Shown here: piece after piece, positions 7,321 to 27,323 of the stretch
How positions within the stretch are numbered: position 1 is the first letter of the stretch
How the letters are laid out: every line of letters starts with the position of its first letter
Assembly: GCA_964597575.1 (NCBI GenBank)
Contig: CAZQXB010000001.1
Coordinates: forward strand, 704,595 to 768,594
Origin: an uncultured Gammaproteobacteria bacterium
GTDB taxonomy: Bacteria; Patescibacteriota; Patescibacteriia; Magasanikbacterales; UBA922
Direction of reading: 5' to 3'
DNA: 64,000 nucleotides
Position numbers and translations under genes: made by a program
Notes under the pieces: model-generated
What the model saw: the letters and a program-made list of their open reading frames with translations, nothing else
Database searches by the model: none
What the model was told of the DNA's origin: nothing

Positions 7321-7860
7321 ATGCCAACTATCGGTAGCCCTCGCACACCAGATAAACTCCCGGAGGGGCTTCGTAAACTCGCTCCACGAGAAGTGGGTAT
7401 TCCGTCTGACCACGAAAACCCACCTCGTGTTGAACGAACAGAACAAGTTCGCGAAAAAGAAAAAACAGAAAACATCCAAAGTCCAAAAGAACAAAAGCCT
7501 GTCGAAGAAGGGCTTATTTCTCGTATTAGAAAACCAAAAGTTATTCCCCAGGTAAAACCCATCACCCGCGATGAAATTACTCGAGATGTGGAACATATTA
7601 TGTCTGAGGGCCTCACTGAGGCATTCAAGGCACTTTCTCCGATTAAGCAACAGGAATTTAAAATGAAAGGAGAAGAGACCGCTCGGGAAATTAGAAGCCT
7701 CCTTTTTTCAACAAAAGTGAAGATGAAAAAAATCTTTGAACTTATTTTTGACTGGCTGAAACTCCTTCCCGGGGTCAACAAATTCTTTCTGGAACAGGAA
7801 GCAAAAATTAAGGCTGAGCGTGTCATGCGCTTGAAAGAGCTCAAAAATTTTCGCCCTTAA
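7321..7860 (+). CDS. hypothetical Lys/Glu-rich protein, first gene of the ATPase operon
   Basis: 179 aa ORF ending 3 nt before the ATPase gene. It is a charged low-complexity protein with no recognised domain. Confidence 0.45.
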   Translation: MPTIGSPRTPDKLPEGLRKLAPREVGIPSDHENPPRVERTEQVREKEKTENIQSPKEQKPVEEGLISRIRKPKVIPQVKPITRDEITRDVEHIMSEGLTEAFKALSPIKQQEFKMKGEETAREIRSLLFSTKVKMKKIFELIFDWLKLLPGVNKFFLEQEAKIKAERVMRLKELKNFRP

Positions 7861-7863
7861 TGT

Positions 7864-10431
7864 ATGCCGCCAGAATTCCTCGGCGACGCACAACCCTATT
7901 TCAATACCAGCGCATCCGTTGATACCACACTCGTTGCGCTTCTTTTGTTTGGAGCCATTGCCGGTGTTGCCACATTTGTTTTTATCCTCCGGGGAATACT
8001 TCATGTAAAATTTCGCAAAGAAAGTAGTTTTACCCGAGTCGTTCTTCGCATTACGGTTCCAAAAGAGCGTCGCAGTGAGGGCCAAGGAAACCAAAGCCAA
8101 CAAGAAGATCGACTAGAACAAGTGCGTGAAGAAATTGGACTTACAGAAACATTCTTTGGCACGATTGCAGGGCTAAAAGCAGAACGCGGTATGGCTCCGT
8201 GGTTTCGTGGACGAAGTGATCATTTAGCCTGTGAAATGGTCGTTCACGACGGCCTCATTACCTTCTACATTGAAGTTCCCAAACGTTTTCGCACCATGAT
8301 TGAGCAGCAGATTCAGGCCCAGTACCCGCATGCCGAAATAGAACAAATGATTGACTACAACAATTTTAGCCCGAAAAGCAGTATTGTGGGCGCCTATATC
8401 GCAAGCGATGGTCCACGCGTTTCCCCGATTAAAACATATCGTAAAATTGAATCGGACCCCCTCTCATCACTTCTAAACGTCCTTGCGAAAGTGCGGGAAC
8501 CTGGAACAAGTTTGGCTGTGCAATATGTTATTCGATCGGCCAAAAAATCGTGGCGCCGTGAAGGGGTTGGCCTTATTGAAAACCTCAGAAAAGGGAAAGG
8601 ATCAAGCGGTTTGGCTGGAAACGTAGGTTCAGGCGTGGCCGGATTTGGCAGCGCCATTGTACAAAACGTAGCAGGCTCCAAAAATGATAAAAACAAATCT
8701 TCGAAAGATGAAAAGAAACACGAACTTACCCAAGCCGAACAAGAACTTATTAAAAACATCCAAGAAAAGCTTGGGAAAGGCGGGCTTGATGTGACGGTTC
8801 GCCTGCTCTCAGTAGCCGATTCTCCAGAAATTGCAAAAACAAACCTCGACAACCTTGTCTCTTCATTTAGCCAGTACAATCTCTACCAGTACGGAAATAG
8901 CTTAAAAGCAGTTATTCCCCGAAATCAAACACAACTAATTCGTGATTTTATTTATCGCACCTTTCACGAGAAGCGAGCCTTTGTCGTCAATACTGAAGAA
9001 ATGGCCGGCCTCTGGCATCTTCCTCTTCACTCAACCGAAACTCCGAACATTCGCTGGCTTGGTGCACGCAAAGCCCCTCCCCCATCCAATGTACCAACCG
9101 AAGGAATTCTTCTTGGACATGTGAACTACCGGGGAACTGACACGCCAATTCACATGAAAGATGCCGATCGTCGGCGCCATATGTATGTAATTGGGAAATC
9201 CGGCTCTGGAAAATCAGTCCTCCTCGCGAATTTAGCTATTCAAGATATTAAAAATGGACACGGCATTTGTATTATCGACCCTCACGGAGATCTAGTAGAG
9301 GATGTTTTGCAACATGTGCCAAAAGAACGGGCTGAGGATGTGATTATATTGAATCCTTCCGATGTTGAGAGGCCCATTGGGCTAAACATGCTCGAGGCGA
9401 AGACGGAAGATCAGAAAGATTTTGCCGTGGGAGAAATGATCGCCATCTTCTACAAGCTCTTTCCACCGGAAATGATTGGGCCAATGTTTGAGCACAACAT
9501 GAGAAATGTGATGCTCACCCTCATGGCGGACATCGATAACCCAGGCACGATTATCGACATCCCTCGCATGTTTACGGATGATGCTTATGTCAAAAAATAC
9601 TTGGTGAAATTGAAAGATCCTGTTGTGCGAGCCTTCTGGGAAAAAGAAATGGCCAAAACGAGTGATTTCCACAAATCTGAAATGCTTGGCTACCTTATTT
9701 CTAAAGTGGGCCGCTTCGTGGAAAACGAAATGATGCGAAACATCATGGGTCAGCAAAAGAGCGGCTTCAATTTTCGCGAAGCCATGGATAAGAAAAAAAT
9801 TCTTCTCGTCAATTTGGCGAAAGGAACTACCGGAGAAATGAACGCTAAACTCATTGGGCTTATTGTGGTAGCAAAACTTCAGATGGCAGCCATGAGCCGG
9901 GCTGATCTTCCTCAAGAAGAGAGAACTGACTTCTACCTGTATATCGACGAGTTTCAAAACTTTGTAACGGATTCGATTTCGACCATTCTCTCCGAAGCCC
10001 GCAAATACCGCCTTAATCTTATTATTGCCCATCAATATATGGGGCAGCTTATTGACGAAAAGGGCCGCGATGATATTCGGAAAGCCGTGCTTGGAAATGC
10101 GGGTACCATGGCCGCGTTCCGTGTAGGCCCTGAGGATGTAGAAATTCTTTCAAAAGAATTTGCACCAACGTTTGGCGGCTACGACCTCTTAAACGCACCA
10201 CAATTTTCTTGTTATACAAAATTGCTCATTGACAATACCGCAAGTAAGCCATTCAATATGCTTACCTATCCGTACAACCAGGGAAATAAAAAACTGGCAG
10301 AAGCGATTCGTCAGCTTTCTCGACTTACCTACGGTCGCGATCGCCGCATTGTCGAAGAAGAAATTCTTGAGCGAACCCAAATTGGGGCGGCTGAAACAAA
10401 AGCGAAAACAAGTGTTGAGTCAAGTTTATAA
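7864..10431 (+). CDS. membrane-anchored HerA/FtsK/VirD4-superfamily P-loop ATPase with a novel ~420 aa N-terminal domain
   Basis: N-terminal TM helix (LVALLLFGAIAGVATFVFIL). Walker A YVIGKSGSGKS is followed by IIDPHGDLVED (the HerA/DUF87-type DPHGE/D motif). Walker B FYLYIDEFQNF, then IIAHQY. Residues 30-420 are homologous to ORF 18913-20349 (AQYPHAEIEQMIDY vs AQYPEAEITEIEDY; EEMAGLWHLPLH..APPPSNVPTEG vs EELATIWHFPMS..EPPSDLPVEG). Confidence 0.75.
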   Translation: MPPEFLGDAQPYFNTSASVDTTLVALLLFGAIAGVATFVFILRGILHVKFRKESSFTRVVLRITVPKERRSEGQGNQSQQEDRLEQVREEIGLTETFFGTIAGLKAERGMAPWFRGRSDHLACEMVVHDGLITFYIEVPKRFRTMIEQQIQAQYPHAEIEQMIDYNNFSPKSSIVGAYIASDGPRVSPIKTYRKIESDPLSSLLNVLAKVREPGTSLAVQYVIRSAKKSWRREGVGLIENLRKGKGSSGLAGNVGSGVAGFGSAIVQNVAGSKNDKNKSSKDEKKHELTQAEQELIKNIQEKLGKGGLDVTVRLLSVADSPEIAKTNLDNLVSSFSQYNLYQYGNSLKAVIPRNQTQLIRDFIYRTFHEKRAFVVNTEEMAGLWHLPLHSTETPNIRWLGARKAPPPSNVPTEGILLGHVNYRGTDTPIHMKDADRRRHMYVIGKSGSGKSVLLANLAIQDIKNGHGICIIDPHGDLVEDVLQHVPKERAEDVIILNPSDVERPIGLNMLEAKTEDQKDFAVGEMIAIFYKLFPPEMIGPMFEHNMRNVMLTLMADIDNPGTIIDIPRMFTDDAYVKKYLVKLKDPVVRAFWEKEMAKTSDFHKSEMLGYLISKVGRFVENEMMRNIMGQQKSGFNFREAMDKKKILLVNLAKGTTGEMNAKLIGLIVVAKLQMAAMSRADLPQEERTDFYLYIDEFQNFVTDSISTILSEARKYRLNLIIAHQYMGQLIDEKGRDDIRKAVLGNAGTMAAFRVGPEDVEILSKEFAPTFGGYDLLNAPQFSCYTKLLIDNTASKPFNMLTYPYNQGNKKLAEAIRQLSRLTYGRDRRIVEEEILERTQIGAAETKAKTSVESSL

Positions 10432-10455
10432 TAATAACACCATTTTAATACACAT

Positions 10456-11082
10456 ATGAATGACCTTTCTTTTGCACACACCTCATTTGATCCTGCGGCC
10501 GAACCAGTTCCTCCGACCCCTGTTTCTCCAAGCGATAACGCCCCACTGCCCCAGACTTCACCAACAGCACCCCCAGACCTTGCCATTGTCCGCCAGATGA
10601 TTCACCGCATGAAAGACGAACTCGACGCTATGCTTCGCGTACTTCAGGGTGACTCGAGCGGATCAAAAGACTTTCGCCCTCATTTTGAAACAATTACTGC
10701 CGGATCTAACATTCAGATACAGGAAGGTGTCTTTACCGGCAACATGATGCGGGCCACCGACGGCAAAGAATACAGCATCCCCCCAAACTATGCGAGCAAA
10801 TCGAAACTGGTAGAGGGCGACCGCATGAAACTCACTATTACTCCGAGCGGTGCGTTTATTTACAAACAAATTGCTCAGATAGAACGCGATCGTGTTACAG
10901 GCGAACTGACCCTTGACCCAGGCACTGGTCAATGGCATGTGGTCGTGAATGGAAAGCCATACAAAGTATTAACCGCTTCGGTAACCTTTTATCGCGGAAA
11001 ACCAGGAGATAAAGTTTCTATTTTAGTCCCAAAAGGAGTTGAGGCTTCTTGGGGCGCAATGGAGAATGTCATTCAGGGATAG
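10456..11082 (+). CDS. hypothetical protein with Pro-rich N-terminus, last gene of the ATPase operon
   Basis: 208 aa ORF with a 25-nt gap after the ATPase gene, followed by a strong terminator. Confidence 0.45.
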   Translation: MNDLSFAHTSFDPAAEPVPPTPVSPSDNAPLPQTSPTAPPDLAIVRQMIHRMKDELDAMLRVLQGDSSGSKDFRPHFETITAGSNIQIQEGVFTGNMMRATDGKEYSIPPNYASKSKLVEGDRMKLTITPSGAFIYKQIAQIERDRVTGELTLDPGTGQWHVVVNGKPYKVLTASVTFYRGKPGDKVSILVPKGVEASWGAMENVIQG

Positions 11083-11103
11083 CATTCAATATACCTCAAA
11101 AAC

Positions 11104-11138: not shown

Positions 11139-11160
11139 TATCCGACTCTTGCCTTACTGT

Positions 11161-11433: not shown

Positions 11434-11646
11434 ACACGATATTTAGAAAATTAAATACTACGTTGTAGTTATGCCCACACTATAACACAGGGGTCATGCG
11501 AAGGGCAATAGGTTATACACAGGGAGGAGGAGTGGTGCCAAGAAACATAAAAAACAACGAATACTTTTTCTCAAAGAAAAAAAGAAAACATCTTCCCCAT
11601 CATGAGAAAGTACTATATACTACGTTTCACTAACACGAACGAATAT

Positions 11647-13266
11647 ATGGCACTCTACCACAAGTACCGCCCTCAAACTTTTGCTGATGTTACTGGCCAA
11701 GAACACATAGTTCGAACAATCTCGAATCAAATTCGCACCAATACGCTCGGTCATGCGTATCTTTTCTCTGGACCTCGCGGGGTTGGTAAAACAACCACTG
11801 CCCGCCTCATTGCCAAAGCCGTCAATTGTGAAAAACGGTCCAAAGATATTTTCGAACCCTGCAATACCTGCACATCGTGCATCGAAATTACCGCTGGACA
11901 TGCTTTAGACGTTGTTGAAATTGATGCGGCGAGCCACACCGGTGTTGACCATGTGCGCGAACACATTATCGATAACGCTCGTTTCCGCCCTACAAAATCT
12001 CCGTTTAAAATATTTATTATCGACGAGGTCCACATGCTTTCCACCTCGGCGTTTAATGCGCTTCTAAAAACCCTAGAGGAACCGCCGGCGCATGTTGTAT
12101 TTATTTTAGCGACGACCGAACTTCAAAAAATTCCCGAAACCATTCTTTCCCGATGCCAACGATTTCAGTTCAAAAAAATGCCCTTTGACGACATGCGAAA
12201 GCATTTGCTCGATATCGCCAAGGCAGAAGATATTACAATTGACGATGAGCCGCTTCATCGCATTATTGCCAAAAGTGATGGTTCAGTACGCGATGCCATG
12301 AGCTTGCTCGACCAGCTCATCTCTTTGGGTGAAAAAAAGATTACTGAAGCGAACGCTGCTGCTATTCTCCCTCTCCATAATCTTGATACTGCGTTTCGCT
12401 TTATTGAAAAAACACTTCAAAGAAACCCGGTTGAAGCACTTCGCATACTTGATGCCGCAAGTGAAGCCGGAACATCATGGATTGATTTAGCCGACGACTG
12501 TGTCGTTATTGCGCGTCTCATGTGTATTGGCCGCGTTGGAGGGGATACAAGCCAAGTTGCCCTTCCTATTCCCAAATCCGTGGAAACATCTGCAGGGGCA
12601 CTGGGAAAAAATCTCTCCTCAAGCGAATTGATTCGTTTTATGGACATGCTCCTTTCGCGCCGGGCCGAAATTGCAAAAAGCCCTATCCCAGAACTTCCTT
12701 TTGAAATGCTCACTATTGCCTGGAGTGCCGAAGAAGAAAAAGGGCCACCTCTACCAACCACCAGCTCGATAAACGTTGCTTCGAAAAAAGTGGAACCGGA
12801 AAAAAAAGAGATTCCAGTTGTTTCAAAAAAAGTACTCGCCTCTGAAATGCCGTCACCACCCACTCCCCCTCCTGTTTCTCCTGTTCAACCAGTTGAAGAA
12901 ATAAAAAACAGTACCCCAGAAGAAACCGCGGCCCTTCCCCCACTTGATTTTGGAACGGTGCAGCTAAAATGGAAGCAATTGGTAAAGTCTCTTGAAACAC
13001 GCTCACCTTCATTGGTTTCTGTGCTTCACATGGCTCGCGTGGAAGGGGTCGAGGGAAGAACCATTACCCTTTCTGTCCCTTTTGCTTTTCACAAAGACAC
13101 GCTGGAGAGCAAAAACGGAAGACCGGCACTTGCTGCAGCCCTTCTTGAGCACTTTAATGGCCGGGCAGATCTTTCTATTCTTATCAAAGAAGAAAAAACA
13201 GACACCGCAGACCCAGATCTCGCGCATCTTGCTGCAGCATTTGGTGGAGAATTTGTATCCCCATAG
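11647..13266 (+). CDS. dnaX: DNA polymerase III subunit gamma/tau
   Basis: YRPQTFADVTGQEH, Walker A GPRGVGKTT, zinc module CxxCxxC (CNTCTSC), Walker B IFIIDEVHML, and sensor SRCQRF. The start was set at MALYHKYRPQTF. Confidence 0.9.
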   Translation: MALYHKYRPQTFADVTGQEHIVRTISNQIRTNTLGHAYLFSGPRGVGKTTTARLIAKAVNCEKRSKDIFEPCNTCTSCIEITAGHALDVVEIDAASHTGVDHVREHIIDNARFRPTKSPFKIFIIDEVHMLSTSAFNALLKTLEEPPAHVVFILATTELQKIPETILSRCQRFQFKKMPFDDMRKHLLDIAKAEDITIDDEPLHRIIAKSDGSVRDAMSLLDQLISLGEKKITEANAAAILPLHNLDTAFRFIEKTLQRNPVEALRILDAASEAGTSWIDLADDCVVIARLMCIGRVGGDTSQVALPIPKSVETSAGALGKNLSSSELIRFMDMLLSRRAEIAKSPIPELPFEMLTIAWSAEEEKGPPLPTTSSINVASKKVEPEKKEIPVVSKKVLASEMPSPPTPPPVSPVQPVEEIKNSTPEETAALPPLDFGTVQLKWKQLVKSLETRSPSLVSVLHMARVEGVEGRTITLSVPFAFHKDTLESKNGRPALAAALLEHFNGRADLSILIKEEKTDTADPDLAHLAAAFGGEFVSP

Positions 13267-13270
13267 CTCT

Positions 13271-14257
13271 ATGCGTTTATTCGCTCTTCCCCTTTTTGGC
13301 CTTTTGCTTCTCCCCTTTCCGGTTTTTGCACTCTCACCCACAGGCCCGACCACCCTAGCGGTTCCTTATGTAAGCCAGGCCCCCTATGGCGTATGGGTTG
13401 AGCCGTGGCAAAATGCGTGCGAAGAAACGACCATTGCTATGGTTGATGCATTTTATGGAAAGCGCACTCTTACTCGCGCAACAGGAACAACCGCTATCCG
13501 GCTGGCGCTTAAACTCCGTGAACACCGCCATGGAAAAAGTTTGGATGAATCTGCCGAAGTCATGAAAGATATCATTAACTCGTATTATCCATGGGAAGCT
13601 TCTGTTGTACGAAACCCAACGCTTGAGCAAATCATGGAGGAAATAAAAAATGGCCGACCAGTGATTGCGCTCACCCACGGGAAAGCACTCGGGAATCCCC
13701 GATTTCAACAAGGCGGGCCAGACTATCATACTATTGTTCTCTCTGGGTTTAACGAACCCACCAAAGAATTTATTACCCAAGAACCTGGTACATCGATTGG
13801 GCAAAATCATCGCTATTCGTTTACGACCGTCATGAATGCACTCCACGATTTTGTTCCAAATAAGAAAACTTCGACCGGCGTGCCGACGGTTTTATTCACC
13901 TCACCTCGAATAGAGGCAAGCGGAACAAGTGATGCAGACGGTGACGGACTCTCCAAACAAGATGAACTTCGGCACGGAACCGTGCTCTATTTTTCAGACA
14001 GTGATGGGGACGGGTACACTGACGGCGAAGAGGTTGTGCTCGGTTTTTTACCCAATAAAAATGAACAGGCCCTTCCGTACGGAACGCTTGTAAAAAGTAC
14101 TGATGCCCCCGCAGTATACCGTTTGGAAAATGGAAAAAAACGCCATATCGTGAGTGAGCAGGCATTTTTAGGACGCGGATGGAAATGGACACAAATCGTT
14201 CTTGTGAGCAGTAGATTTCTCGAGAACGTTCCAGTCGGCACTCCTATCACCCGGTAA
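13271..14257 (+). CDS. secreted peptidase-C39-like (C39_2 family) protein with C-terminal thrombospondin-type-3 repeats
   Basis: Signal peptide MRLFALPLFGLLLLPFPVFA. VPYVSQAPYG...NACEETTIAMVDAFYGK resembles the Peptidase_C39_2 Cys motif. The C-terminus has DADGDGLSKQDE and DSDGDGYTDGEE Ca-binding TSP3 repeats. The track ORF start at 12992 overlaps dnaX, so the ATG at 13271 was used. Confidence 0.65.
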   Translation: MRLFALPLFGLLLLPFPVFALSPTGPTTLAVPYVSQAPYGVWVEPWQNACEETTIAMVDAFYGKRTLTRATGTTAIRLALKLREHRHGKSLDESAEVMKDIINSYYPWEASVVRNPTLEQIMEEIKNGRPVIALTHGKALGNPRFQQGGPDYHTIVLSGFNEPTKEFITQEPGTSIGQNHRYSFTTVMNALHDFVPNKKTSTGVPTVLFTSPRIEASGTSDADGDGLSKQDELRHGTVLYFSDSDGDGYTDGEEVVLGFLPNKNEQALPYGTLVKSTDAPAVYRLENGKKRHIVSEQAFLGRGWKWTQIVLVSSRFLENVPVGTPITR

Positions 14258-18610: not shown

Positions 18611-18854
18611 ACGAGTATTACTTTGGTGAAAAAGAAGTATATCATATTTGGCTAAAATATCAAGAGAATCCTATTTTTATCTTGATAAAAATGATACCTT
18701 GAGGGTCGTAGACCCAAGCTCTCCACCCGACGATCACCGAGGCGCTCCACCCCCACCCCTACGGTGCACTAAGGAGGCGCAAGCGTAACAAGACCCCAGA
18801 AACAGAAGACTGCTCACCAGGGGTCGACAATTCTTTTCTTTTCAAGAACTTGAG

Positions 18855-18896
18855 GACAGAAAAATAAAGATCTCCCGTTATGCGAGAGATCTTTAT
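18855..18896 (-). terminator. intrinsic terminator of the 478-aa paralog gene (minus strand)
   Basis: Perfect 11-bp stem ATAAAGATCTC/GAGATCTTTAT with an 11-nt loop. On the minus strand it is followed by TTTTTCTGTCC. It begins 17 nt after the stop at 18913. Confidence 0.5.
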
Positions 18897-18912
18897 CTAT
18901 TTGATTGTCCTC

Positions 18913-20349
18913 TTAGGAATCGAGTATATGGCCGGAATCGGTCATGTACCGTCGCGGAGCAGGCTTGTCTGGTGCTGGGGTTGGCTCTACAGACTTCTTC
19001 TCTTCAACCATGACACCCTGCGGCAAAACCATACCCAGACCCTCAACTGGCAAGTCTGACGGCGGCTCGGTTTTCTTCGCCCCAGCTTTTTGTAAGAGTG
19101 GTACCCGCACGTGAGACATTGGAAAGTGCCAAATTGTGGCCAGCTCTTCAATATTCAACACAAATGATTTCAAAATTTTTCCCATGGCCCGTTCTTTATA
19201 GGCCTGCATAATTTTTCGCTTGCGTTCATTTTTTATTCTATCAGCAAACAAATATTTGGTACTGGTGAGGTATTTTGGTAAAAGTGCATTCGAGGTGGGG
19301 TTGTTAAACTGATTGATCGCCCCGATAAGCGAATTCACCCCACGCGCCGGGTTAAATATCTCTTTCCGAGCCACATAAATCATGCGAATTTTTGTTTTGT
19401 ACCCAATTTTACTAATTTTATCTTCCATGGCTTCGACCAATTTTTTCTGCCCTGGAGTAAGGTATTGCATTTTATTTTGATCACTTTTTCCCTCTTTTGC
19501 GGCCCCCTCTCCCCCACCTAAAAACTCACTTCCAACCAACTGTGGCCCAAAAACGTTTGCAGCCTGGATTGGAATATCTAAGGCTTTTCCTAAAAAACCC
19601 TGTTTTTTAGGCTTTTTCTTTTCTCCAATAAGCTTATTAATCTCCTCAATAGAATCCTTTTTCCACTCTTTATCAGGGGTCGGCTCAATCACCATCTGGT
19701 ACCACATCTGTTCGCCCGGACCAATGCGACTGAAACTTTCCAAGAATGTACCCATCGGATCTTTCACTGGCGCATCTTTATCAACCATGTGCTCGAAATC
19801 ACGGTATACCCGAAGCGGGTAGGCATCAGGCGCCACCAACTTAAACTCAGCCCCCCACATATTATATGTTTTGTCAGGGTAGTGCTCGGGAATTCCCTTG
19901 GTGTAATCTTCAATTTCCGTAATTTCAGCTTCAGGGTATTGTGCATAAAGTGCCGCCTCCATAACGTCACGGTACTGTTCTAAAACCCGCACGACAAACT
20001 GGATATACCCCTCGATACTTACAATTTCAAAACTGAACGAAAAAGGTTCAAACCCTCGCCGATACATGAGGGCGATAGCATTCCCTTCGTAAATAGAAAA
20101 AATATGAGCGAACATTTGCTCAACCGCTTTTGGTGTCTGAACATTGAGCTGCGGAACATCAATCGCAAGGTGTACCCAACGCCACTTATCAACATATTTT
20201 TTATTCTTGTAGAAAGCCAATAAAAAAAGACCGCCTTTCAAAAGTAAGGCCGCAACAAGAATCCAAGCCCCGGCAGTAAAAAGTCGCGTCAAAGCGACAA
20301 CGGGCGGAGCCGTAACCTCACGCATGACAAGAAAGAGAAACTCTTCCAT
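18913..20349 (-). CDS. membrane-anchored paralog of the N-terminal domain of the 855-aa ATPase, lacking the ATPase
   Basis: 478 aa with TM helix AGAWILVAALLLKGGLFLLAFY. It aligns along its whole length with residues about 30-420 of ORF 7864-10431, including the conserved blocks AQYPEAEITEIEDY and IWHFPM...EPPSDLPVEG. It ends where the ATPase module begins in the long protein. Confidence 0.65.
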   Translation of the reverse strand: MEEFLFLVMREVTAPPVVALTRLFTAGAWILVAALLLKGGLFLLAFYKNKKYVDKWRWVHLAIDVPQLNVQTPKAVEQMFAHIFSIYEGNAIALMYRRGFEPFSFSFEIVSIEGYIQFVVRVLEQYRDVMEAALYAQYPEAEITEIEDYTKGIPEHYPDKTYNMWGAEFKLVAPDAYPLRVYRDFEHMVDKDAPVKDPMGTFLESFSRIGPGEQMWYQMVIEPTPDKEWKKDSIEEINKLIGEKKKPKKQGFLGKALDIPIQAANVFGPQLVGSEFLGGGEGAAKEGKSDQNKMQYLTPGQKKLVEAMEDKISKIGYKTKIRMIYVARKEIFNPARGVNSLIGAINQFNNPTSNALLPKYLTSTKYLFADRIKNERKRKIMQAYKERAMGKILKSFVLNIEELATIWHFPMSHVRVPLLQKAGAKKTEPPSDLPVEGLGMVLPQGVMVEEKKSVEPTPAPDKPAPRRYMTDSGHILDS

Positions 20350-20359: not shown

Positions 20360-20521
20360 CTATACCTCGATTAAGGTATAAATTGCCCAATAGATCACAG
20401 CAACACCAAGGCCACTCCACCACCATCCGAACTGGCCCGATTTATAACCGGCCACAAAAAAAACAATGGCAACAAGAGTTCCAACCAGTGCGATCATGTG
20501 TCGCACGGCATTTTCTGACAT
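20360..20521 (-). CDS. small 2-TM membrane protein (53 aa) between secF and the paralog gene
   Basis: MSENAVRHMIALVGTLVAIVFFVAGYKSGQFGWWWSGLGVAVIYWAIYTLIEV has two hydrophobic helices. It is below the 60-aa ORF-track cutoff. There are 8 nt between its stop and the start of the downstream gene. Confidence 0.35.
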   Translation of the reverse strand: MSENAVRHMIALVGTLVAIVFFVAGYKSGQFGWWWSGLGVAVIYWAIYTLIEV

Positions 20522-20611: not shown

Positions 20612-21553
20612 TTATGCTCGACGACGCATTTGCCAGTTGTTGAGCGTCACAAGAAGTGGGCTCGCCAGGAAGATAGAAGAATATGCCCCGGCAAAGATAC
20701 CAACGATGAGTGTTAGAGCAAAGTTGTGGATGCTCTCACCGCCAAAAAAGAAGATCGCGAGCAAACTCAGTTCAGCGGTGAACGAGGTATTAAAGGAACG
20801 AATGACCGTCTGGTTCACACTCATTTCGACGGTATCGTCAAAATTCGCAGTTCCTCGGCGTAGGATGTTCTCACGAATTCGATCGAAAACAATGATCGTA
20901 TCGTTTACGGAATACCCAAGAATCGTCAAAAGGGCTACCACAATAGGAATGTCAATCTCGAGCCCTGCAAATCTCCCCAAAACCGACAACACCCCCATGG
21001 TGATAAGAATATTATGGATTAAAGCAATAATAGCAATTGCCCCATACTTCCACGAAGTAACAGGCTGAGATACTTTTCTGAAGGTGTAAGCAACGTAGAG
21101 AATGATACCAAGTAATACTGCGGCTGTAGCAGCTACGGCGCGATTTCGAAGTTCAACGCTAATTGCTGGACCAACCTTCTCAAAACGGTCTTCGCGAAAA
21201 GCGGCAGCCAACTCTTCTGCCCCAGTAGCACCAGTAAGCTCTGAAAGCTCATTGAGCACATTCTGGTGTTCTTCTTCAGACAAGAAGCGCATGCGCAAAA
21301 TGTACCCATTGTCGCCCGTTGTTTGAGCAACCACCTGGTCAATTCCAGCTTCACGCACCTCAGCAATCACAGCCTCTTGACTCGGACGCTCCTGTAGATA
21401 CGTAACCGCAACAAGCGATCCACCAGTGAAATCAATCCCTGGTTTTAATCCAAAGATCACGAGCACCACAATACTTGCGATCGATAAGACGCTTGAGATA
21501 AAGAATGGAATCGAACGGTATCGGACAATCTTAAACGTAAACATAGTCATCAT
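20612..21553 (-). CDS. secF: protein translocase subunit SecF
   Basis: GIDFTGGSLVAV and a six-TM RND-like C-terminus. Its start codon overlaps the secD stop. Confidence 0.85.
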   Translation of the reverse strand: MMTMFTFKIVRYRSIPFFISSVLSIASIVVLVIFGLKPGIDFTGGSLVAVTYLQERPSQEAVIAEVREAGIDQVVAQTTGDNGYILRMRFLSEEEHQNVLNELSELTGATGAEELAAAFREDRFEKVGPAISVELRNRAVAATAAVLLGIILYVAYTFRKVSQPVTSWKYGAIAIIALIHNILITMGVLSVLGRFAGLEIDIPIVVALLTILGYSVNDTIIVFDRIRENILRRGTANFDDTVEMSVNQTVIRSFNTSFTAELSLLAIFFFGGESIHNFALTLIVGIFAGAYSSIFLASPLLVTLNNWQMRRRA

Positions 21554-23598
21554 TATGATTTTCGTTTCTTCGCTCCTAAAAAGAGCCGATTACCATGTTC
21601 AGGAAACCATGGCACCATAAAACGAAGAATAACACGGGTAACGGTAATTGCGGAAAACATACTCACAAACACCCCGATAATCAGAACGAAGGCAAACCCT
21701 TTCACGAAACTAGAACCGAACCACAGAAGTACGACACAGGTAATAATCGCTGACACATTACCATCATGAATGGCGTTCCATGCTCGATCAAACCCTTCTT
21801 CAACGGCCTTAAACAACGATTTTCCACCCTGAAGTTCTTCTTTTAATCGCTCAAAGATAAGGACATTGTTATCAATCGCCATACCCATAGAAAGAATGAG
21901 ACCGGCAATACCCGATAACGTGAGGGTTACCCCAAAGAGTTTAAAGAGGGCAAGTGTAAGCACGGTGTAGAGGGCTAAACTGAGTGTCGCAATGAGACCA
22001 GGCAATCGGTATACTGCGACCATGAAAATCGCAATAAGAGTGAGCGCAGCCAAACCTGCTTTCAAACTAAGGGTAAGGGAATCAAGTCCGAGGGTCGCTC
22101 CAACCTGCTGCTGACTCACGAGCTCAACCGGTACAGGCAAGGCTCCGGCATTCAACTGTTGGGTCAACAATTTCGCTTCAGCAAAGGTAAAGCCTCCTTG
22201 AATGACGGCTCGGCCATCACTAATGACGGTTTGTACAACCGGTGCACTAATAGGGTTATTATCGAGGAAGATTCCCACTTGTTTCCCCAAATTGCGTTCC
22301 GTAATTTCACGGAAAAGGTCGCGACCTTCGTCGTTAAACTGAAGTGACACCATAACCGCACCGGTTTGCTGGTCACTCACCACTTCTGCGCGTTTAAGCT
22401 GAGAGCCAGAAAGTTTTGTTGGCTTCCAACCGTTATTTGGTGGAACAATATCGTCTTTTGTTTTGGTGGCTACAAAAACATGAGAAAGCTCATATTCTTT
22501 TTCAGGTCCTTCGCTAATCTTATAGATAACATGGTACCCGAATTCTGTTTCGACCGGTCCAATAATTTCTCCGGCTTTGGCTGCTGAAACTGCATCGTCA
22601 AAAGCTTTTACCATTTGACCTTTCGTAAAGCTACCTAAGTCACCGCCAGTTTGTGCGGCCCCAGGTTCTGTTGAGTATTTTTTCGCAAGTTCACTAAAAT
22701 TCTTCGCATTCGCTTCTTTAAAAATATCTTCGGCTTTCTTTCGCGCCTCTTCTTTCGTATACAGTGGCTCGTCACATCCCTGCGACCCTAAATAGCAGAA
22801 TAAAATATGTTTTGCCGCAATAACTGGCGCACCATCGCGTTCTCCCCCGCGCTTTAATATATGGTACCCGAGTGGTGTTTCAATAAGCGTCTGTGATGTT
22901 TGGTCGGGTTTTGCACTCTCAGCCCAGGTGTACATATTTTCATACACCGTTCGCTTATTCACAAAACCAAGATTACCAGCGAGATCCTTACTTTGCGTAT
23001 CATCGCTTAACTCTTTTGCAAGAGTTGCAAAGTCTTCCCCTTTTTTCACGCGAGCAAGAGTGGTATTCGCTTTTTTAAGCGCTTCTGCATTAAAGTCGGC
23101 CAATTGTTTTTCTTCTTCAGCAGTTAATGCACGCGCTGGCTCGTTTGATGGTTCACGAAAATCCAAAATTGGCGTTTCTCCAATCAAACGAATTGCTTGT
23201 GTAATATCTTGAACTCCAGGAAGTTCAACGAGAATACGGTACGCATCCCCTACTTTTGTAGTCTGGACATTCGACTCTGCCACACCGAACGCATTCACCC
23301 GGCGCTCAATAACACCACGCACACCCTCTACGGAATCGGCTTGGTCAGCAGCCGGAAGGCTTGTCACATTTGCCTCATATACTAACTGCGCGCCCCCTTG
23401 TAAATCGAGCCCCAAAGAGAACGATTTTGGTGGAATCCGAGGGATACCGAGCGCAATACTTCCATTGACCGCATCAATAGCTTTATTCGCATAGGCCGGA
23501 AAAATATACACGGCGCAAGCTACGATAAGCACAAAAATACCCGCAATTCCCCATCGGACCTTCGCACGAACTTCAGCTGCAGAAAGTGTTTGTTTCAT
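21553..23598 (-). CDS. secD: protein translocase subunit SecD with two inserted parvulin-type (PpiC) peptidyl-prolyl isomerase domains
   Basis: N-terminal TM, LGLDLQGGAQLVYEA (SecD P1 motif), and a C-terminal six-TM bundle. The periplasmic region holds two rotamase modules: DFATLAKELSDD...LAGNLGFVNK...ETPLGYHILK and NFSELAKKYSTEPGAAQTGGDLGSFTKGQMVKAFDDAV...GPVETEFGYHVIYK. Confidence 0.85.
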   Translation of the reverse strand: MKQTLSAAEVRAKVRWGIAGIFVLIVACAVYIFPAYANKAIDAVNGSIALGIPRIPPKSFSLGLDLQGGAQLVYEANVTSLPAADQADSVEGVRGVIERRVNAFGVAESNVQTTKVGDAYRILVELPGVQDITQAIRLIGETPILDFREPSNEPARALTAEEEKQLADFNAEALKKANTTLARVKKGEDFATLAKELSDDTQSKDLAGNLGFVNKRTVYENMYTWAESAKPDQTSQTLIETPLGYHILKRGGERDGAPVIAAKHILFCYLGSQGCDEPLYTKEEARKKAEDIFKEANAKNFSELAKKYSTEPGAAQTGGDLGSFTKGQMVKAFDDAVSAAKAGEIIGPVETEFGYHVIYKISEGPEKEYELSHVFVATKTKDDIVPPNNGWKPTKLSGSQLKRAEVVSDQQTGAVMVSLQFNDEGRDLFREITERNLGKQVGIFLDNNPISAPVVQTVISDGRAVIQGGFTFAEAKLLTQQLNAGALPVPVELVSQQQVGATLGLDSLTLSLKAGLAALTLIAIFMVAVYRLPGLIATLSLALYTVLTLALFKLFGVTLTLSGIAGLILSMGMAIDNNVLIFERLKEELQGGKSLFKAVEEGFDRAWNAIHDGNVSAIITCVVLLWFGSSFVKGFAFVLIIGVFVSMFSAITVTRVILRFMVPWFPEHGNRLFLGAKKRKS

Positions 23599-24016: not shown

Positions 24017-26779
24017 TTACGCCCCATGACACTTCTTAAACTTCTTTCCCGAGCCGCATGGGCACATATCATTTCGCCCCACTTTTTGTTGTGCGTCCGC
24101 TGCTCCTGCAACTGGCGGGGGTGCTGCTGTTTCTTTGGTTGCACCGCTTAGCGTTAGTGTGTCGGTCGCCATAATCGTCGGCGCAACTTGAATACCAATA
24201 TTCACCTTGAAGAATCCGTAGACGACTTCTTTCTGAATGTTTGCTAAAAGTTCATTAAACATGCGGAAAGTTTCTTTCTTATACTCAACGAGCGGATCAC
24301 GTTGACCGTAGCCACGAAGGCCGATACCGGCACGCAAATGATCAATGGAAACGAGATGATCAACCCACAAGGTATCGATCGCACGAATAAGTACTCCTGA
24401 TTCAATATCGCGCATCGTTATGTGTGCTGCTTCAGGCGAACTTGAGGCACCCTGAATTGCTTGCTCCATCTGCGTATATGTTTTTACCGCTAACCCAAAT
24501 AAAAATTCAACAATTTTTTCACGCACTTCCACGTCGCCAAGCTTTCCATCTTCACGCTTTGTAAATGCGAGAAGTGTTGCTTTTTCTTCATCACTGACCG
24601 GAAACATGGTCCGAGCGGTTTCATACACTTCCTGCATGTTCCACTCCCCGCTTTCGGTGTTGGTATGGAACCCAACCACGAGTTCAATTTCTTTTTGCAT
24701 CATGTCGAGCACCATGCCTTTACTTGGTCGCGTATCAGACACTTCTTTCACATCAAGCAGCTCTAACACCTGACGACGTTTCTTATAAATCACATCGCGG
24801 TGTTTGTTCAACACATCATCGTATTCAAGCAAATGCTTACGCGTATCAAAGTGATGCGATTCTACCTTCTTCTGCGCTGATGCCAAAATTTTTCCAAGAA
24901 TCGGCTGTTCAATCGGTAAATCTTCCGGAACATTCAAACGGGTCATCACATTTTTCATTCTGTCTCCTGCAAAAATGCGCATGAGTTCATCTTCTGTTGA
25001 AATGAAAAATTGTGTTTCCCCTGGATCCCCTTGGCGGGCACTGCGTCCACGGAGCTGATTATCGATACGACGAGACTCATGACGCTCCGTACCGAGAACA
25101 AACAACCCACCGGCACTGAGAACCTTCTCATGCTCCTCTTTATTCATGGGGGTACCACCGAGTTTAATATCTACCCCGCGCCCAGCCATGTTCGTCGCCA
25201 AAGTCACGGCTCCCGGGCGACCTGCCTGCGCAATAATCTCCCCCTCACGCTCATGATTCTTCGCATTTAAAAGTTCATGCTGAATTCCTTGGGCTTGCAA
25301 ATACATGCTGAGTTGCTCATTTTTTTCAACCGAAGCTGTACCAATAAGCACTGGCTGACCCTTCGCGCGAGTTTCTTTTACTTTTGCCACAATGGCCTTG
25401 AACTTCGCCGCTTCTGTTTTATAAATACGATCGGTTTGGTCGATTCGACGATCCGGCTTGTTGGTTGGAATAACCACGACTTCCACATTATAAATTTTTC
25501 CAAGCTCTTCAGCTTCCGTAGCCGCTGTACCTGTCATACCAGAAAGTTTCTTGTACATGCGGAACAAGTTCTGGAACGTAATCGTCGCAAGTGTCTGGCT
25601 TTCTTTTTGAATTTTTACTCCTTCTTTCGCTTCAATGGCTTGATGCAAACCTTCGCTATAACGACGACCTGGCATTTTGCGGCCGGTAAATTCGTCGATG
25701 ATAACCACTTCACCCTTATCGACGACGTATTCTTTATCGCGCTTAAAAAGAACCTCGGCCTTGAGCGCCTGTTCAATGTGGTGGACGAGGCGAATACCGC
25801 CTTCAGCGTAAATATTTTCTACCCCAAGCCAACCTTCAAATTTATGAATGCCTTCTTCCGTTAAAGAAACGCTGCGCAACTTTTCATCAACATTATAATC
25901 GGTTACCTTATCAAGCTTCCGCGCAAGATCTGCAAATTGATAATACTGTTCTGTGGCCTCCATTGAAGGAGCCGAAATAATAAGCGGGGTGCGGGCTTCA
26001 TCAATTAAAATGGAATCCACTTCGTCGACAATGGCATAATGCATTTCGTTCCCCGGGCGCATCACCATGTCGGAAACGCGCTGCACCATGTTGTCGCGCA
26101 AATAATCGAAGCCATATTCGTTGTTCGTGCCGTAAGTAATGTCACAACGATACGCTTCTTGACGAGTCGCTGGGCGTAAAAATTCGTATTCTACTTTGAA
26201 ACTCCCTAAATCGTCGCGTTCTTTATCGGCTTCACTTCCCTCAGCAACTTTCGCTGCTTCTTCCGGCGGTTTCGCAAAACCTGCATCGTACACATACGTA
26301 ACACGCTGGTTTTGAATCACCCCAACACTAAGCCCAAGGAATGCATAAATCTGCCCCATCCAAACTGCATCACGGCGTGCCAAATAATCGTTCACCGTTA
26401 CCACATGCACGCCCTTTCCCTCTAACGCATTTACATAGGTCGGAAGAGTTGCGGTCAGCGTTTTTCCTTCACCGGTTCTCATTTCTGCAATCTGCCCTTT
26501 GTGGAGCACTAAGCCACCGATAAGCTGAACATCGTAATGCCGCATCCCAGCCACACGTTTCGCCGCTTCTCGGACGGTAGCAAACGCTTCCGGTAAAATA
26601 GCATCGGTGGTTTCTCCGTTTTGAAGTCGCGCTTTAAATTCAGCGGTTTTCGCTTTGAGTGCTTCATCAGAAAGAGCAGAATAGCTCGATTCAAGCTCGT
26701 TTATTTTTTTAACAACAGGATCAAGTGTTTTCAGTACTTTTGCATTCGGATCTCCAAGTAATTTCGTAAGAAAAGACAT
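24017..26779 (-). CDS. secA: preprotein translocase ATPase SecA
   Basis: DEAD-like motor motifs (MRTGEGKTL, DEVDSILIDEARTPLII), the preprotein cross-linking and helical scaffold domains, and a C-terminal Zn finger CPCGSGKKFKKCHG. The start was set at MSFLTKLLGD. Confidence 0.9.
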   Translation of the reverse strand: MSFLTKLLGDPNAKVLKTLDPVVKKINELESSYSALSDEALKAKTAEFKARLQNGETTDAILPEAFATVREAAKRVAGMRHYDVQLIGGLVLHKGQIAEMRTGEGKTLTATLPTYVNALEGKGVHVVTVNDYLARRDAVWMGQIYAFLGLSVGVIQNQRVTYVYDAGFAKPPEEAAKVAEGSEADKERDDLGSFKVEYEFLRPATRQEAYRCDITYGTNNEYGFDYLRDNMVQRVSDMVMRPGNEMHYAIVDEVDSILIDEARTPLIISAPSMEATEQYYQFADLARKLDKVTDYNVDEKLRSVSLTEEGIHKFEGWLGVENIYAEGGIRLVHHIEQALKAEVLFKRDKEYVVDKGEVVIIDEFTGRKMPGRRYSEGLHQAIEAKEGVKIQKESQTLATITFQNLFRMYKKLSGMTGTAATEAEELGKIYNVEVVVIPTNKPDRRIDQTDRIYKTEAAKFKAIVAKVKETRAKGQPVLIGTASVEKNEQLSMYLQAQGIQHELLNAKNHEREGEIIAQAGRPGAVTLATNMAGRGVDIKLGGTPMNKEEHEKVLSAGGLFVLGTERHESRRIDNQLRGRSARQGDPGETQFFISTEDELMRIFAGDRMKNVMTRLNVPEDLPIEQPILGKILASAQKKVESHHFDTRKHLLEYDDVLNKHRDVIYKKRRQVLELLDVKEVSDTRPSKGMVLDMMQKEIELVVGFHTNTESGEWNMQEVYETARTMFPVSDEEKATLLAFTKREDGKLGDVEVREKIVEFLFGLAVKTYTQMEQAIQGASSSPEAAHITMRDIESGVLIRAIDTLWVDHLVSIDHLRAGIGLRGYGQRDPLVEYKKETFRMFNELLANIQKEVVYGFFKVNIGIQVAPTIMATDTLTLSGATKETAAPPPVAGAADAQQKVGRNDMCPCGSGKKFKKCHGA

Positions 26780-26905
26780 ACAAGTGAATAGGGATGTAAC
26801 ACGTCGGAGTGTAGCACTTCCCCTCGCTATTGGCAACCCCAAAAAATGCAAAAGGACAGATGGGGATCTGTCCGGAGAAAAGAAAACGAGGGTTCTTTAA
26901 GAGCT

Positions 26906-27307: not shown

Positions 27308-27323
27308 GGTGAACTTCCTTCCA

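Follow-up and report, generated by a model that had tools for sequence, protein, structure and literature searches.

The dimers of VirB4 ATPases are held together entirely by their N-terminal domains, which also bind VirB3 and VirB8, their partners in the membrane (PMC9259494). A naturally split VirB4 occurs on the Staphylococcus plasmid pGO1 (TraD/TraE of pSK41), where TrsD, a small protein related to the N-terminal part of VirB4, is encoded (trsD, 25886-26569; L090) directly upstream of TrsE, the ATPase part (trsE, 26584-28602). In canonical VirD4-type coupling proteins (T4CPs; VirD4/TrwB/TraD) the membrane domain is short, with two helices, and a VirB4-like N-domain is absent. In Patescibacteria, TrsD-like proteins are reported to be the most abundant component of type IV secretion systems (T4SS), and 5,713 VirD4-type homologues have been counted in 2,918 genomes, about two per genome (PMC12102498). 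Hardly any of these VirD4-like ATPases is encoded close to the genes for type IV secretion, and the survey left open what they do ("exapted for other functions"); a t4cp homologue proved dispensable when S. epibionticum grows as an epibiont (PMC12102498).

Here we analyse a 478-residue protein encoded in a 64-kb window (the whole stretch of DNA under study) from Magasanikbacteria. It belongs to Pfam family DUF8128 (PF26449) and to PHROG phrog_5156, both annotated as of unknown function with neither an assigned fold nor a partner, and a literature search for "DUF8128" found no mention of it. An initial annotation had described the protein as a stand-alone, motor-less paralogue of the N-terminal domain of an 855-residue ATPase encoded in the same window. 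We favour, with a probability of roughly 65%, the explanation that it forms the anchor half of a VirB4/VirD4-like ATPase, split into two genes and widespread among Patescibacteria, and would serve as a membrane scaffold for a translocation motor.

Results

The 478-residue protein and its fused paralogue

The gene has an ATG start in the open reading frame (ORF) listing of the window (Table 1). PF26449 is the precomputed Pfam match of an identical protein, and PF26449.1 is precomputed for nearly all listed orthologues and also for the N-halves of 855-type proteins. The 478-residue protein itself gave no match in our Pfam scan, whose model set apparently did not include PF26449, nor in NCBIfam or PADLOC. 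phrog_5156 is listed for both window proteins, with E = 9.5e-15 for the 478-residue and 5.8e-90 for the 855-residue protein.

The initial annotation had aligned the short protein end to end with residues ~30-420 of the long one, and BLASTP reproduced this with one HSP (query 17-467, subject 23-437, 26% identity, E = 2e-31). Because of this E-value we judge the similarity to be real and far beyond a compositional level. Both proteins have one N-terminal hydrophobic helix in a hydropathy scan, as expected for the shared transmembrane (TM) anchor that had been proposed, and AF2 models this helix at residues 16-54 (pLDDT >93) of the short protein and 18-55 of the long one. The two motif blocks noted earlier are also present in both sequences (YAQYPEAEITEIEDY in the 478-residue protein versus QAQYPHAEIEQMIDY in the 855-residue protein; LATIWHFPMSHV...EPPSDLPVEG versus MAGLWHLPLHST...APPPSNVPTEG). 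Homology ends at ...VEG, residue 437 of the short protein and 414 of the long one, ~30 residues before Walker A (GKSGSGKS, residues 444-451), in agreement with the earlier observation that the paralogue stops where the ATPase begins. The Walker A/B ATPase domain is absent from the 478-residue protein and present in its paralogue, and the NBD with its all-alpha insertion is likewise found in the 855-residue paralogue, and in the type-B ATPases described below, and not in the short protein. A domain common to a motor-containing and a motor-less protein had therefore been correctly recognised.

The basic stretch KNKKYVDKWR that follows the helix would, by positive-inside reasoning, place the rest of the 478-residue protein in the cytoplasm. 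Because no second TM helix separates DUF8128 from the cytoplasmic ATPase to which it is fused in the paralogue, the domain should indeed face the cytoplasm, and for the same reason we rejected a periplasmic or lipoprotein domain. The DUF8128 domain has a disordered insert at about residues 245-295 and the WHFP...PPSDLPVEG motifs at its end. In the C-terminal tail TDSG is conserved, while the terminal aromatic-Gly motif, (K/E)(F/Y)G, that the closest homologues keep is missing.

Among the NCBIfam VirB4 models, the 855-residue protein matched the mycoplasma VirB4 model alone (17 bits against a cut-off of 590), and its PADLOC matches were generic P-loop or mad8 only. The two ORFs that flank its gene had no family match in Pfam, NCBIfam, PADLOC or further family searches.

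Table 1. Positions of the features discussed, in window coordinates.
Feature	Position	Strand	Basis or remark
DUF8128 gene, 478 aa	18913..20349	-	Putative membrane-anchor half of split type-B unit; PF26449 listed for identical protein P0001
N-terminal TM helix, about aa 16-48, then basic KNKKYVDKWR	20206..20304	-	Hydropathy scan and AF2
DUF8128 domain, aa 58-437	19039..20178	-	Predicted alpha/beta fold like VirB4/TrwK N-terminal domain
Low-complexity C-terminal tail, aa 438-478 (41 aa)	18916..19038	-	pLDDT 47-61; tail comparison across loci
secD, two inserted PpiC-type PPIase domains, first gene of putative operon	21553..23598	-	Pfam
Promoter-like site upstream of secD	23648-23619	-	Consensus match only
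secF	20612..21553	-	Pfam SecD_SecF_C, E = 4e-54
53-aa hydrophobic mini-protein, GWWW motif (orf53)	20360..20521	-	Always between secF and DUF8128 gene; 74/83 loci
Intrinsic terminator of secD-secF-orf53-DUF8128 unit	18857..18898	-	16-bp stem, then U-run
855-aa fused paralogue (type A)	7864..10431	+	TM helix aa 18-50, DUF8128 aa 58-414, VirB4/VirD4-type ATPase aa 415-840
179-aa ORF directly upstream of 855-type gene	7321..7860	+	tblastn: conserved at L054, L056, L065, L083
208-aa ORF directly downstream of 855-type gene	10456..11082	+	tblastn: conserved at L010, L036, L043

A predicted VirB4-like fold

The AF2 model of the 478-residue protein was confident (pLDDT 87.7, pTM 0.80), and the top 12 Foldseek matches were all TrwK (probability 0.89-1.0, and ≥0.99 in 11 of the 12). 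P-loop ATPase structures, including the VirB4 C-terminal-domain entry 4ag5, were absent from the matches, and the likeness is therefore to the VirB4 N-terminal domain. The DUF8128 domain is thus predicted to have the fold of that domain, which upholds the VirB4 analogy drawn earlier; the likeness is that of a predicted model, with 8% identity and low global TM-scores of ~0.3. By sequence, the DUF8128 profile found no real match in the PDB, and the protein matched none of the VirB4 profiles (CagE_TrbE_VirB, AAA_10 and the NCBIfam VirB4 models).

Membrane association is a feature shared with the N-terminal domain of VirB4/TrwK of plasmid R388. In contrast to that system, the DUF8128 protein has its own N-terminal TM helix in place of a separate VirB3, its partner ATPase is VirD4/T4CP-like by sequence rather than VirB4-like, and its gene is a core chromosomal gene that adjoins secDF with no virB2/3/6/8 near. 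EccE of mycobacterial type VII secretion (ESX-3, ESX-5) scored much weaker, with a partial domain alignment and no sequence similarity, and has two TM helices rather than one.

A separate ATPase gene

In nine related loci the DUF8128 gene is directly followed by a gene for a soluble VirD4-like ATPase of ~590 residues (L057, L061, L075, L077, L079, L086, L089, L091 and L096), and the two genes overlap in L096 and, by 4 nt, in L089. Examples of the ATPase gene are 9427-11187 of L057 and 7001-8746 of L096. We refer to this two-gene version as type B and to the fused protein as type A. The short N-halves are 36-47% identical among themselves and 21-26% identical to the N-half of the 855-residue protein; the stand-alone ATPases, unlinked ones included, are 56-74% identical among themselves and 41-45% identical to its C-half. 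On these sequence comparisons, each half of the split pair forms a sister clade to the corresponding half of the 855-residue protein. The stand-alone ATPases have no N-terminal TM helix and start exactly at the beta-strand after the PPxxLPxEG of the fused protein, a linker that is ordered in the fused AF2 model (pLDDT 85-97) and disordered in the short protein (pLDDT 61-74). Split anchors have a second motif of this kind, PPxNLPxx, at their very C-terminal end.

Because of the adjacent ATPase gene in nine loci and the sister clades, we assign the 478-residue protein, on sequence grounds, as the N-terminal anchor half of a split paralogue, and not as an evolutionarily stand-alone motor-less paralogue. 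The initial annotation has to be revised on this point: the matching ATPase has a gene of its own, which adjoins the anchor gene in some lineages and is dispersed in Magasanikbacteria. In most Magasanikbacteria, including the window, the ATPase gene does not adjoin the anchor gene. Type-B ATPases unlinked from DUF8128 were found on at least four contigs, three of them with a protein labelled Magasanikbacteria by NCBI, and among the contigs compared, anchor and type-B ATPase could be matched to one genome only where their genes adjoin. In the window, dus follows the anchor gene instead of an ATPase gene, none lies at the second usual place, upstream of the zinc-ribbon-mnmA pair, and a search of all 64 kb for a second ATPase found the 855-residue gene alone. 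The ATPase motor of the type-B unit may lie outside these 64 kb or may have been lost in this genome.

The C-half of the 855-residue protein and the type-B ATPases pass the Pfam cut-offs for TrwB_AAD_bind, T4SS-DNA_transf and TraG-D_C, and align over their full length with the T4CP of pGO1, TrsK. They differ from T4CPs in falling far below every NCBIfam equivalog cut-off, in almost never lying near virB4 or a relaxase, and in their membrane parts: the 855-residue protein has one helix and a 360-residue DUF8128 domain, and the stand-alone ATPases have no N-terminal helix. Both types are evidently among the VirD4 homologues already counted in Patescibacteria (PMC12102498). The domain, too, had already been catalogued, in Pfam.

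In its genetic logic the type-B pair resembles TrsD and TrsE, since at the nine loci the DUF8128 gene also lies directly upstream of its cognate ATPase gene. Despite this, hhalign of the DUF8128 profile against pGO1 TrsD detected no relationship (probability 0.2, E = 0.29), and TrsD has 227 residues compared to ~480 for the DUF8128 protein. Patescibacterial TrsD homologues mostly adjoin virB4, whereas the DUF8128 gene adjoins secDF and has a T4CP-like partner.

The 478-residue protein might instead pair with the 855-residue fused paralogue, N-domain to N-domain, as the "outside" VirB4 subunit does on the "central" one in R388. The subunits of the hexamer would then gain a second, ATPase-free, membrane-tethered scaffold that would bind other partners such as orf53 or SecDF. 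That VirB4 dimers rest entirely on N-terminal domains (PMC9259494) is in keeping with such pairing, as are the predicted VirB4 N-domain fold of both proteins, the 11 kb within which both are encoded, and the single ATPase gene of the window. Moreover, an 855-type gene lies ≤8 kb from the anchor gene in 9/83 loci, and in L091 the fused paralogue is directly behind the split pair in one operon. We nevertheless regard this pairing as rather unlikely: the type-B ATPase is clearly the evolutionary partner, with congruent clades and adjacent or overlapping genes, the low identity between the two paralogous N-domains (given above) speaks against it, and proximity of an 855-type gene is the exception. 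The pairing would, in addition, be compatible with the 478-residue protein being a split anchor.

Linkage to secDF

The 478-residue gene is the last of a minus-strand series, secD-secF-orf53-DUF8128, with gaps of 90 nt between secF and orf53 and 10 nt between orf53 and the DUF8128 gene. The order and the first gap are as originally described; the second had been given as 8 nt. The series has its own strong terminator, as had been claimed, with a hairpin directly past the stop codon (dG -30.5 kcal/mol, z = -9.0 versus shuffles in RNA folding). The 53-residue mini-protein has a clear consensus sequence across loci and no Pfam or NCBIfam match; neither it nor the 478-residue protein matched the YajC family in these two collections. 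No T4SS genes were found in the window by Pfam searches of most ORFs of ≥150 residues and by tblastn, which returned housekeeping, Sec, pilin/PilM and ComEC genes. Rfam and repeat scans of a GC-rich island at 28-30 kb were empty.

The initial annotation had raised the question whether homologues elsewhere are linked to secDF as well, and this is so for 65 of the 72 informative loci, which strongly conserve the order secA-secD-secF-orf53-DUF8128. The linkage extends to more distant Patescibacteria (L089, L091 and L096) and is absent at L075, L077 and L079. An envelope function had been deduced from it; the linkage itself is confirmed, but as the domain faces the cytoplasm the protein would be a membrane-associated cytoplasmic scaffold at most, and the linkage may reflect co-expression only.

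This conserved order, together with the short gaps, the one terminator and the promoter-like site upstream of secD, might be taken to mean that the 478-residue protein was exapted, after loss of its ATPase, as an ATPase-independent Sec translocon accessory that acts, together with the 53-residue membrane protein, from the cytoplasmic side on SecDF or SecA. The C-terminal tail of this sub-lineage has also drifted from the PPxNLP form of loci with an adjacent ATPase. However, secDF linkage is also seen at loci that retain the ATPase gene next to the anchor gene (L057, L061, L086, L089, L091 and L096), and it therefore predates, and is independent of, the separation of the motor. Motor-less forms have also kept, (nearly) without variation, the WHFP and PPxxLPxEG residues that stand ahead of the ATPase in the fused protein, and there is no similarity to YajC or a known Sec accessory in Pfam or NCBIfam. 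We consider a Sec accessory slightly less probable again than pairing with the 855-residue protein.

Conservation of the family

Orthologues of the 478-residue protein were found at >80 loci, and its family comprises 572 clusters (50% identity) at E ≤ 1e-30. A search with the N-domain of the 855-residue protein yielded partial proteins, without the query itself, and its counts are left out here. In 149 family members drawn from both classes, H408, P410 and P417 never vary and Q137, Y149, P430 and P434 are kept at ≥90%. Although the ORF ends where an ATPase would begin and its extreme C-terminus is unlike that of its closest relatives, it is most improbable that it is a decaying, functionless remnant of a truncated ATPase gene, given this breadth, the confident AF2 model, and intact orthologues of 450-520 residues with invariant motifs and 38-75% identity in >80 species-level genomes; conservation effectively refutes a pseudogene. 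A role in anti-phage defence (HerA-type) was also rejected, as the protein has no PADLOC match and the locus lies in conserved core synteny.

Relatives in phages and plasmids

The family is not limited to this lineage, since Bacillus phages and Firmicutes plasmids also encode fused DUF8128-ATPase homologues. Gp156 of Bacillus phage G aligned by hhalign to the DUF8128-like domain plus ATPase with a probability of 99.9 (E = 1e-31), and SPO1-like phage proteins (e.g. CampHawk_129) and CLJ_RS00250 of Clostridium botulinum plasmid pCLJ have the same fused architecture. In tblastn these relatives span residues 95-791 with 21-25% identity. Unlike the window proteins, they have no N-terminal TM helix. 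The CampHawk homologue adjoins a Replic_Relax nickase and ParM, and the phage G homologue adjoins a VirB4-type ATPase; hhalign found no relationship to phage G gp155. Relatives were found by tblastn of INPHARED phages, and none in a scan of IMG/VR viral contigs with the family alignment.

Discussion

The data above are best explained if the 478-residue protein crosses the membrane once, has the DUF8128 domain as its cytoplasmic body and is itself the N-terminal half of the type-B unit. The other half would be the soluble VirD4-like ATPase of ~590 residues, of hexameric type and with no membrane helix, and the fused type-A protein would be a sister paralogue of the whole. The ancestral gene order was likely secD-secF-(small TM ORF)-DUF8128-ATPase-zinc-ribbon protein-mnmA, from which the ATPase gene would since have separated in most Magasanikbacteria, this one included. 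By analogy with VirB3 and the VirB4 N-terminal domain in type IV secretion, the anchor would tether and organise the ATPase on the cytoplasmic side of the membrane, and its proline-rich/aromatic C-terminal tail may serve to dock it to the ATPase in trans. Speaking against this explanation are the lack of an ATPase gene behind the anchor gene in the window, the loss of the terminal aromatic-Gly motif from the window protein, the low identity and TM-scores of the VirB4 likeness, and the dispensability of the t4cp homologue in S. epibionticum.

What would such a motor move? We infer that the anchor acts as the membrane scaffold of a hexameric ATPase that translocates DNA or protein, and that the motor would drive the translocation of macromolecules, with expression coordinated with that of SecDF. 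DNA would be the most likely substrate, because the ATPase is of the coupling-protein type and phage homologues adjoin a Replic_Relax nickase.

The split anchor and ATPase are found across the candidate phyla radiation and would vary a known machine without amounting to an entirely new system. More tentatively, and with the odds against it, the fused and split paralogues could constitute a distinct membrane translocation motor, encoded by near-universal core genes of Patescibacteria and independent of VirB4-based T4SS, in which a VirB4-type N-domain anchor is combined with a VirD4-type ATPase and was ancestrally co-transcribed with SecDF. If true, this motor could have survived as an intermediate from the ancient separation of VirB4 and VirD4. 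It could also be the ATP-driven motor, missing so far, on which these reduced, host-dependent cells rely to take up or export DNA (or protein).

The 478-residue ORF would be half of a recognisable machine whose partner gene is simply not adjacent in the window. With it the orphan VirD4-like ATPases of Patescibacteria gain an anatomy: a predicted VirB4-like N-domain (DUF8128), two ancient paralogues (one fused, the other split into anchor and motor), a conserved operon with SecDF and a 53-residue membrane protein, and relatives encoded by Bacillus phages and clostridial plasmids. Confirmation would turn DUF8128 into a testable scaffold-motor hypothesis, would bear on the divergence of VirB4 and VirD4, and would provide a candidate translocation machine in organisms that have to import most of their building blocks from hosts.

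The shared domain and its putative operon

The 478-aa product of the DUF8128 gene (the anchor) aligned with the N-terminal part of the 855-aa ATPase (7864-10431, plus strand), confirming the observation made in the initial annotation. BLASTP gave one alignment (query 17-467, subject 23-437) with 26% identity and E=2e-31. The motif blocks described as common to the two proteins were present in both sequences, and many of their residues were invariant or near-invariant in an alignment of 149 members drawn from both classes of the family. Homology stopped at ...PPSDLPVEG (aa 437), equivalent to aa 414 of the 855-aa protein and just N-terminal of Walker A, so the paralogue does end where the ATPase starts.

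The gene follows secD, secF and a 53-aa ORF, all on its own strand, with secA further upstream of secD. The co-orientation and the 90-nt gap between secF and the 53-aa ORF were as annotated; the gap from this ORF to the DUF8128 gene was 10 nt rather than 8. The stop codon is followed by the strong terminator that had been proposed, a 16-bp hairpin with a U-run (-30.5 kcal/mol, z=-9). The G+C-rich stretch beyond it had no Rfam match at the gathering threshold. The two-PpiC-domain architecture of SecD recurred in every related locus examined.

A scan for relatives, using one genome per species, gave at least 561 loci, of which the best 80 were retrieved. Homologues elsewhere do adjoin secDF, a point the annotation had raised: secD and secF were immediately upstream, on the same strand, in 65 of the 72 loci with at least 3.5 kb of upstream sequence, and slightly more distant in two others. 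The linkage was kept in loci L089, L091 and L096, the first two with anchors just 36-37% identical to the window protein, and was absent in L075, L077 and L079. The 53-aa ORF (consensus MSDxxIRHLIAFxGTLxxxLAYxAGYxSGxxGWWWT...) was found in 74/83 loci and matched no known family. An 855-type gene lay within 8 kb of the anchor in 9/83 loci, flanked by homologues of the window 179-aa and 208-aa ORFs. These two ORFs, which matched no Pfam, NCBIfam, PADLOC or PHROG family, may encode partners of the fused paralogue.

Family membership and predicted fold

Local Pfam, NCBIfam and PADLOC scans gave no matches for the 478-aa protein. A large protein database assigns PF26449 (DUF8128) to a sequence identical to it, to nearly all listed orthologues and to the N-terminal halves of proteins of the 855 type, so the shared domain has a catalogue entry but is uncharacterised. 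A literature search by the name DUF8128 found no paper that mentions it. When 1.84 billion cluster representatives were searched exhaustively with HMMER, 1,780 clusters reached E<=1e-3 and 572 of these E<=1e-30; almost all of the top 150 were short forms (420-690 aa). Named matches came from Magasanikbacteria, Nomurabacteria, Falkowbacteria, Uhrbacteria and other Patescibacteria. Many records titled "uncultured Gammaproteobacteria bacterium" with CAY*/CAZ* accessions (L007, L011, L014 and many more) carried secA-secD-secF-DUF8128 loci of the Magasanikbacteria type, whose proteins were 50-68% identical to those of the window; the titles of these records are apparently incorrect.

The C-terminal half of the 855-aa protein exceeded the Pfam cut-offs for TrwB_AAD_bind, T4SS-DNA_transf, DUF87 and TraG-D_C, and scored far under all NCBIfam equivalog cut-offs. 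By sequence, it is assigned to the VirD4/TraD type of the FtsK-HerA superfamily.

Structure prediction for the shared domain, as the annotation had suggested, pointed to the fold of the VirB4 N-terminal domain. The AlphaFold2 model, built from an alignment of 149 sequences, was confident (pLDDT 87.7, pTM 0.80), with a long N-terminal helix (aa 16-54), an alpha/beta body, and disorder in an insert (about aa 245-295) and in the tail from aa 438 on. Twelve chains of TrwK, the VirB4 of plasmid R388, took the top Foldseek ranks (probability 0.89-1.0; 11/12 at >=0.99). The model has no P-loop domain, and no other P-loop ATPase was among the Foldseek hits, the VirB4 C-terminal-domain entry 4ag5 being absent too; therefore, the match is to the VirB4 N-terminal domain. 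The DUF8128 family profile found nothing among PDB sequences, and on the predicted model the similarity is structural only. The ATPase domain aligned end-to-end in sequence with the VirD4-like TrsK of Staphylococcus plasmid pGO1, and only around Walker A with its VirB4-like TrsE. Together, the fold match and these alignments indicate that the fused protein combines a VirB4-type N-domain with a VirD4-like ATPase.

A proposed split pair of anchor and ATPase

Using the window proteins as tblastn queries, an ATPase-like gene was found directly 3' of the DUF8128 gene in six loci (L057, L061, L075, L077, L079 and L086), and a search from the ATPase side added L089, L091 and L096. These stand-alone ATPases are about 590 aa long, lack an N-terminal membrane helix, and start exactly at the beta-strand after PPxxLPxEG of the fused protein. 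Their family is very large and very conserved (>8,000 matches; the top 120 all >=70% identical). Identities among short N-halves were 36-47%, against 21-26% between these and the 855 N-half; among stand-alone ATPases they were 56-74%, against 41-45% to the 855 C-half. Both halves divide alike, which argues that duplication of an ancestral DUF8128+ATPase unit gave rise to the 855-aa protein (type A, fused) and to the pair of anchor and motor (type B, split). The scheme fits a Patescibacteria survey that counted 5,713 VirD4-type homologues in 2,918 genomes, only 148 of them near virB4, for which its authors suggest exaptation (PMC12102498).

Some genomes have additional genes behind the split pair: one for a further fused DUF8128-ATPase paralogue, which lacks a TM anchor and shares 30% identity with the 855-aa protein, and/or one for a polytopic TPR membrane protein of large size (about 760 aa). 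These hint at a bigger operon. The stand-alone type-B ATPase of L075 carries a zinc ribbon (zf_Tbcl_2) as a C-terminal fusion, and the motif recurs at the C-terminal end of the L086 ATPase; in L087, L088 and L098 a zf_Tbcl_2 gene lies 3' of the ATPase gene.

The DUF8128 domain is probably on the cytoplasmic side, because in the fused paralogue it joins a cytoplasmic ATPase with no membrane helix between, and because a basic stretch follows the N-terminal helix in both proteins. In the R388 machine, VirB4 dimerises through its N-domains, which also bind VirB3 and VirB8, both membrane proteins (PMC9259494). By analogy, the anchor would most likely tether and organise a soluble hexameric ATPase at the membrane, the two docking in trans. 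Such docking is supported by the PPxxLPxEG linker, modelled as ordered in the fused protein (pLDDT 85-97) and as disordered in the short one, and by a second PPxNLPxx motif at the extreme C-terminus of split anchors, behind a variable low-complexity linker.

State of the locus in the window

Several contigs, three with a protein labelled Magasanikbacteria by NCBI, have a type-B ATPase gene that is not linked to the anchor gene and typically lies some genes upstream of a zf_Tbcl_2-mnmA-DUF4153 block. In the window, the gene after the anchor is dus, and the genes ahead of the corresponding block encode a pilin, a response regulator and PilM rather than an ATPase. No second ATPase was found anywhere within the 64 kb, nor were other T4SS genes. 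The window anchor lacks the terminal (K/E)(F/Y)G kept by its closest homologues.

Elsewhere, a GC-rich island (about 28100-29900; 0.59, compared with about 0.45 on average for the window) contains overlapping ORFs on both strands, no Pfam or Rfam match and no repeats, and may be horizontally acquired. ComEC is encoded in two genes.

Features of the window and of retrieved loci (L-numbers)
Sequence	Feature	Location	Strand	Remarks
Window	zf_Tbcl_2-mnmA-DUF4153 block	281-3422	-	
Window	Double treble-clef zinc-ribbon protein (zf_Tbcl_2)	3066-3422	-	Near mnmA
Window	Type IV pilin, response regulator, PilM	3624-5663	-	
Window	179-aa ORF	7321-7860	+	Beside 855-aa ATPase gene
Window	208-aa ORF	10456-11082	+	Beside 855-aa ATPase gene
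Window	G+C-rich stretch, ~90 nt	18700-18790	-	Between DUF8128 terminator and promoter-like site upstream of dus
Window	DUF8128 gene	18913-20349	-	478 aa, start codon ATG
Window	53-aa hydrophobic mini-protein	20360-20521	-	Conserved GWWW motif; between secF and DUF8128 gene
Window	SecD	21553-23598	-	Two PpiC-type peptidyl-prolyl isomerase (rotamase) domains inserted in periplasmic P1 region
Window	Likely gene in GC-rich island	28164-28763	-	Two H-x-T-L motifs (2H-phosphoesterase-like)
Window	Likely gene in GC-rich island	29002-29706	+	
Window	ComEC, two genes	55101-57496	-	DUF4131+Competence (501 aa); metallo-beta-lactamase (297 aa)
L075	ATPase with zf_Tbcl_2	9381-11138		
L086	ATPase with zinc-ribbon motif	9372-11159		
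L086	Extra gene after split pair	11167-13503		
L089	SecD-SecF-DUF8128-ATPase			4-nt overlap
L091	SecD-SecF-small ORF-DUF8128-ATPase, then second fused DUF8128-ATPase, then TPR membrane protein			Extra genes after split pair: 7962-10184, 10222-12492
L096	SecF-DUF8128-ATPase-118 aa-MnmA			Uhrbacteria genome
L102 (phage CampHawk)	ParM-like gene, three tiny TM ORFs, DUF8128-ATPase, Replic_Relax nickase	3779-9304		In a row
L103 (phage G)	VirB4-type P-loop protein gene, DUF8128-ATPase gene	3240-7382		DUF8128-ATPase gene second

Relatives in phages and plasmids

PHROG family phrog_5156, annotated as function unknown, matched the full length of the 855-aa protein (E=6e-90) and aa 83-452 of the anchor (E=9.5e-15). 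Fused homologues were found by tblastn in Bacillus phage G (gp156, E=5e-47), in SPO1-like phages, and on large Firmicutes plasmids including Clostridium botulinum pCLJ. In hhalign, the DUF8128 profile aligned with gp156 across the N-domain motifs (probability 99.9, E=1e-31). SPO1-like Bacillus phages encode the gene row tabulated for CampHawk, and in phage G the gene comes after that of a VirB4-type P-loop protein. Such neighbours suggest DNA handling and would fit a role like that of a coupling protein; the gene sets of CampHawk and phage G look like a plasmid- or conjugation-like module within lytic phages.

Relation to known systems

The naturally split VirB4 of pGO1, TrsD-TrsE, follows the same genetic logic of an N-domain protein and an ATPase gene. 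However, TrsD has no detectable profile similarity to DUF8128, whose partner ATPase is VirD4-like. Sequence-based tests placed the 478-aa protein in none of VirB4, TrsD, T4CP or YajC, leaving the VirB4 N-domain fold and Pfam DUF8128 as its only affiliations. The idea of a domain common to motor-containing and motor-less proteins stands, with the 478-aa protein recast as half of a split pair. A new kind of system, raised in the annotation for the two loci together, is rejected. We consider it probable, at roughly two in three, that the 478-aa protein forms the anchor half of a split ATPase common in Patescibacteria, VirD4-like and bearing a VirB4-type N-domain. Our confidence is fairly high for the identity of the protein and low for any specific function. 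The VirB4-like fold of DUF8128, the fused and split paralogues, the conserved secDF-orf53 (53-aa ORF) operon, and the link of the family to phage and plasmid homologues all appear to be previously unreported.
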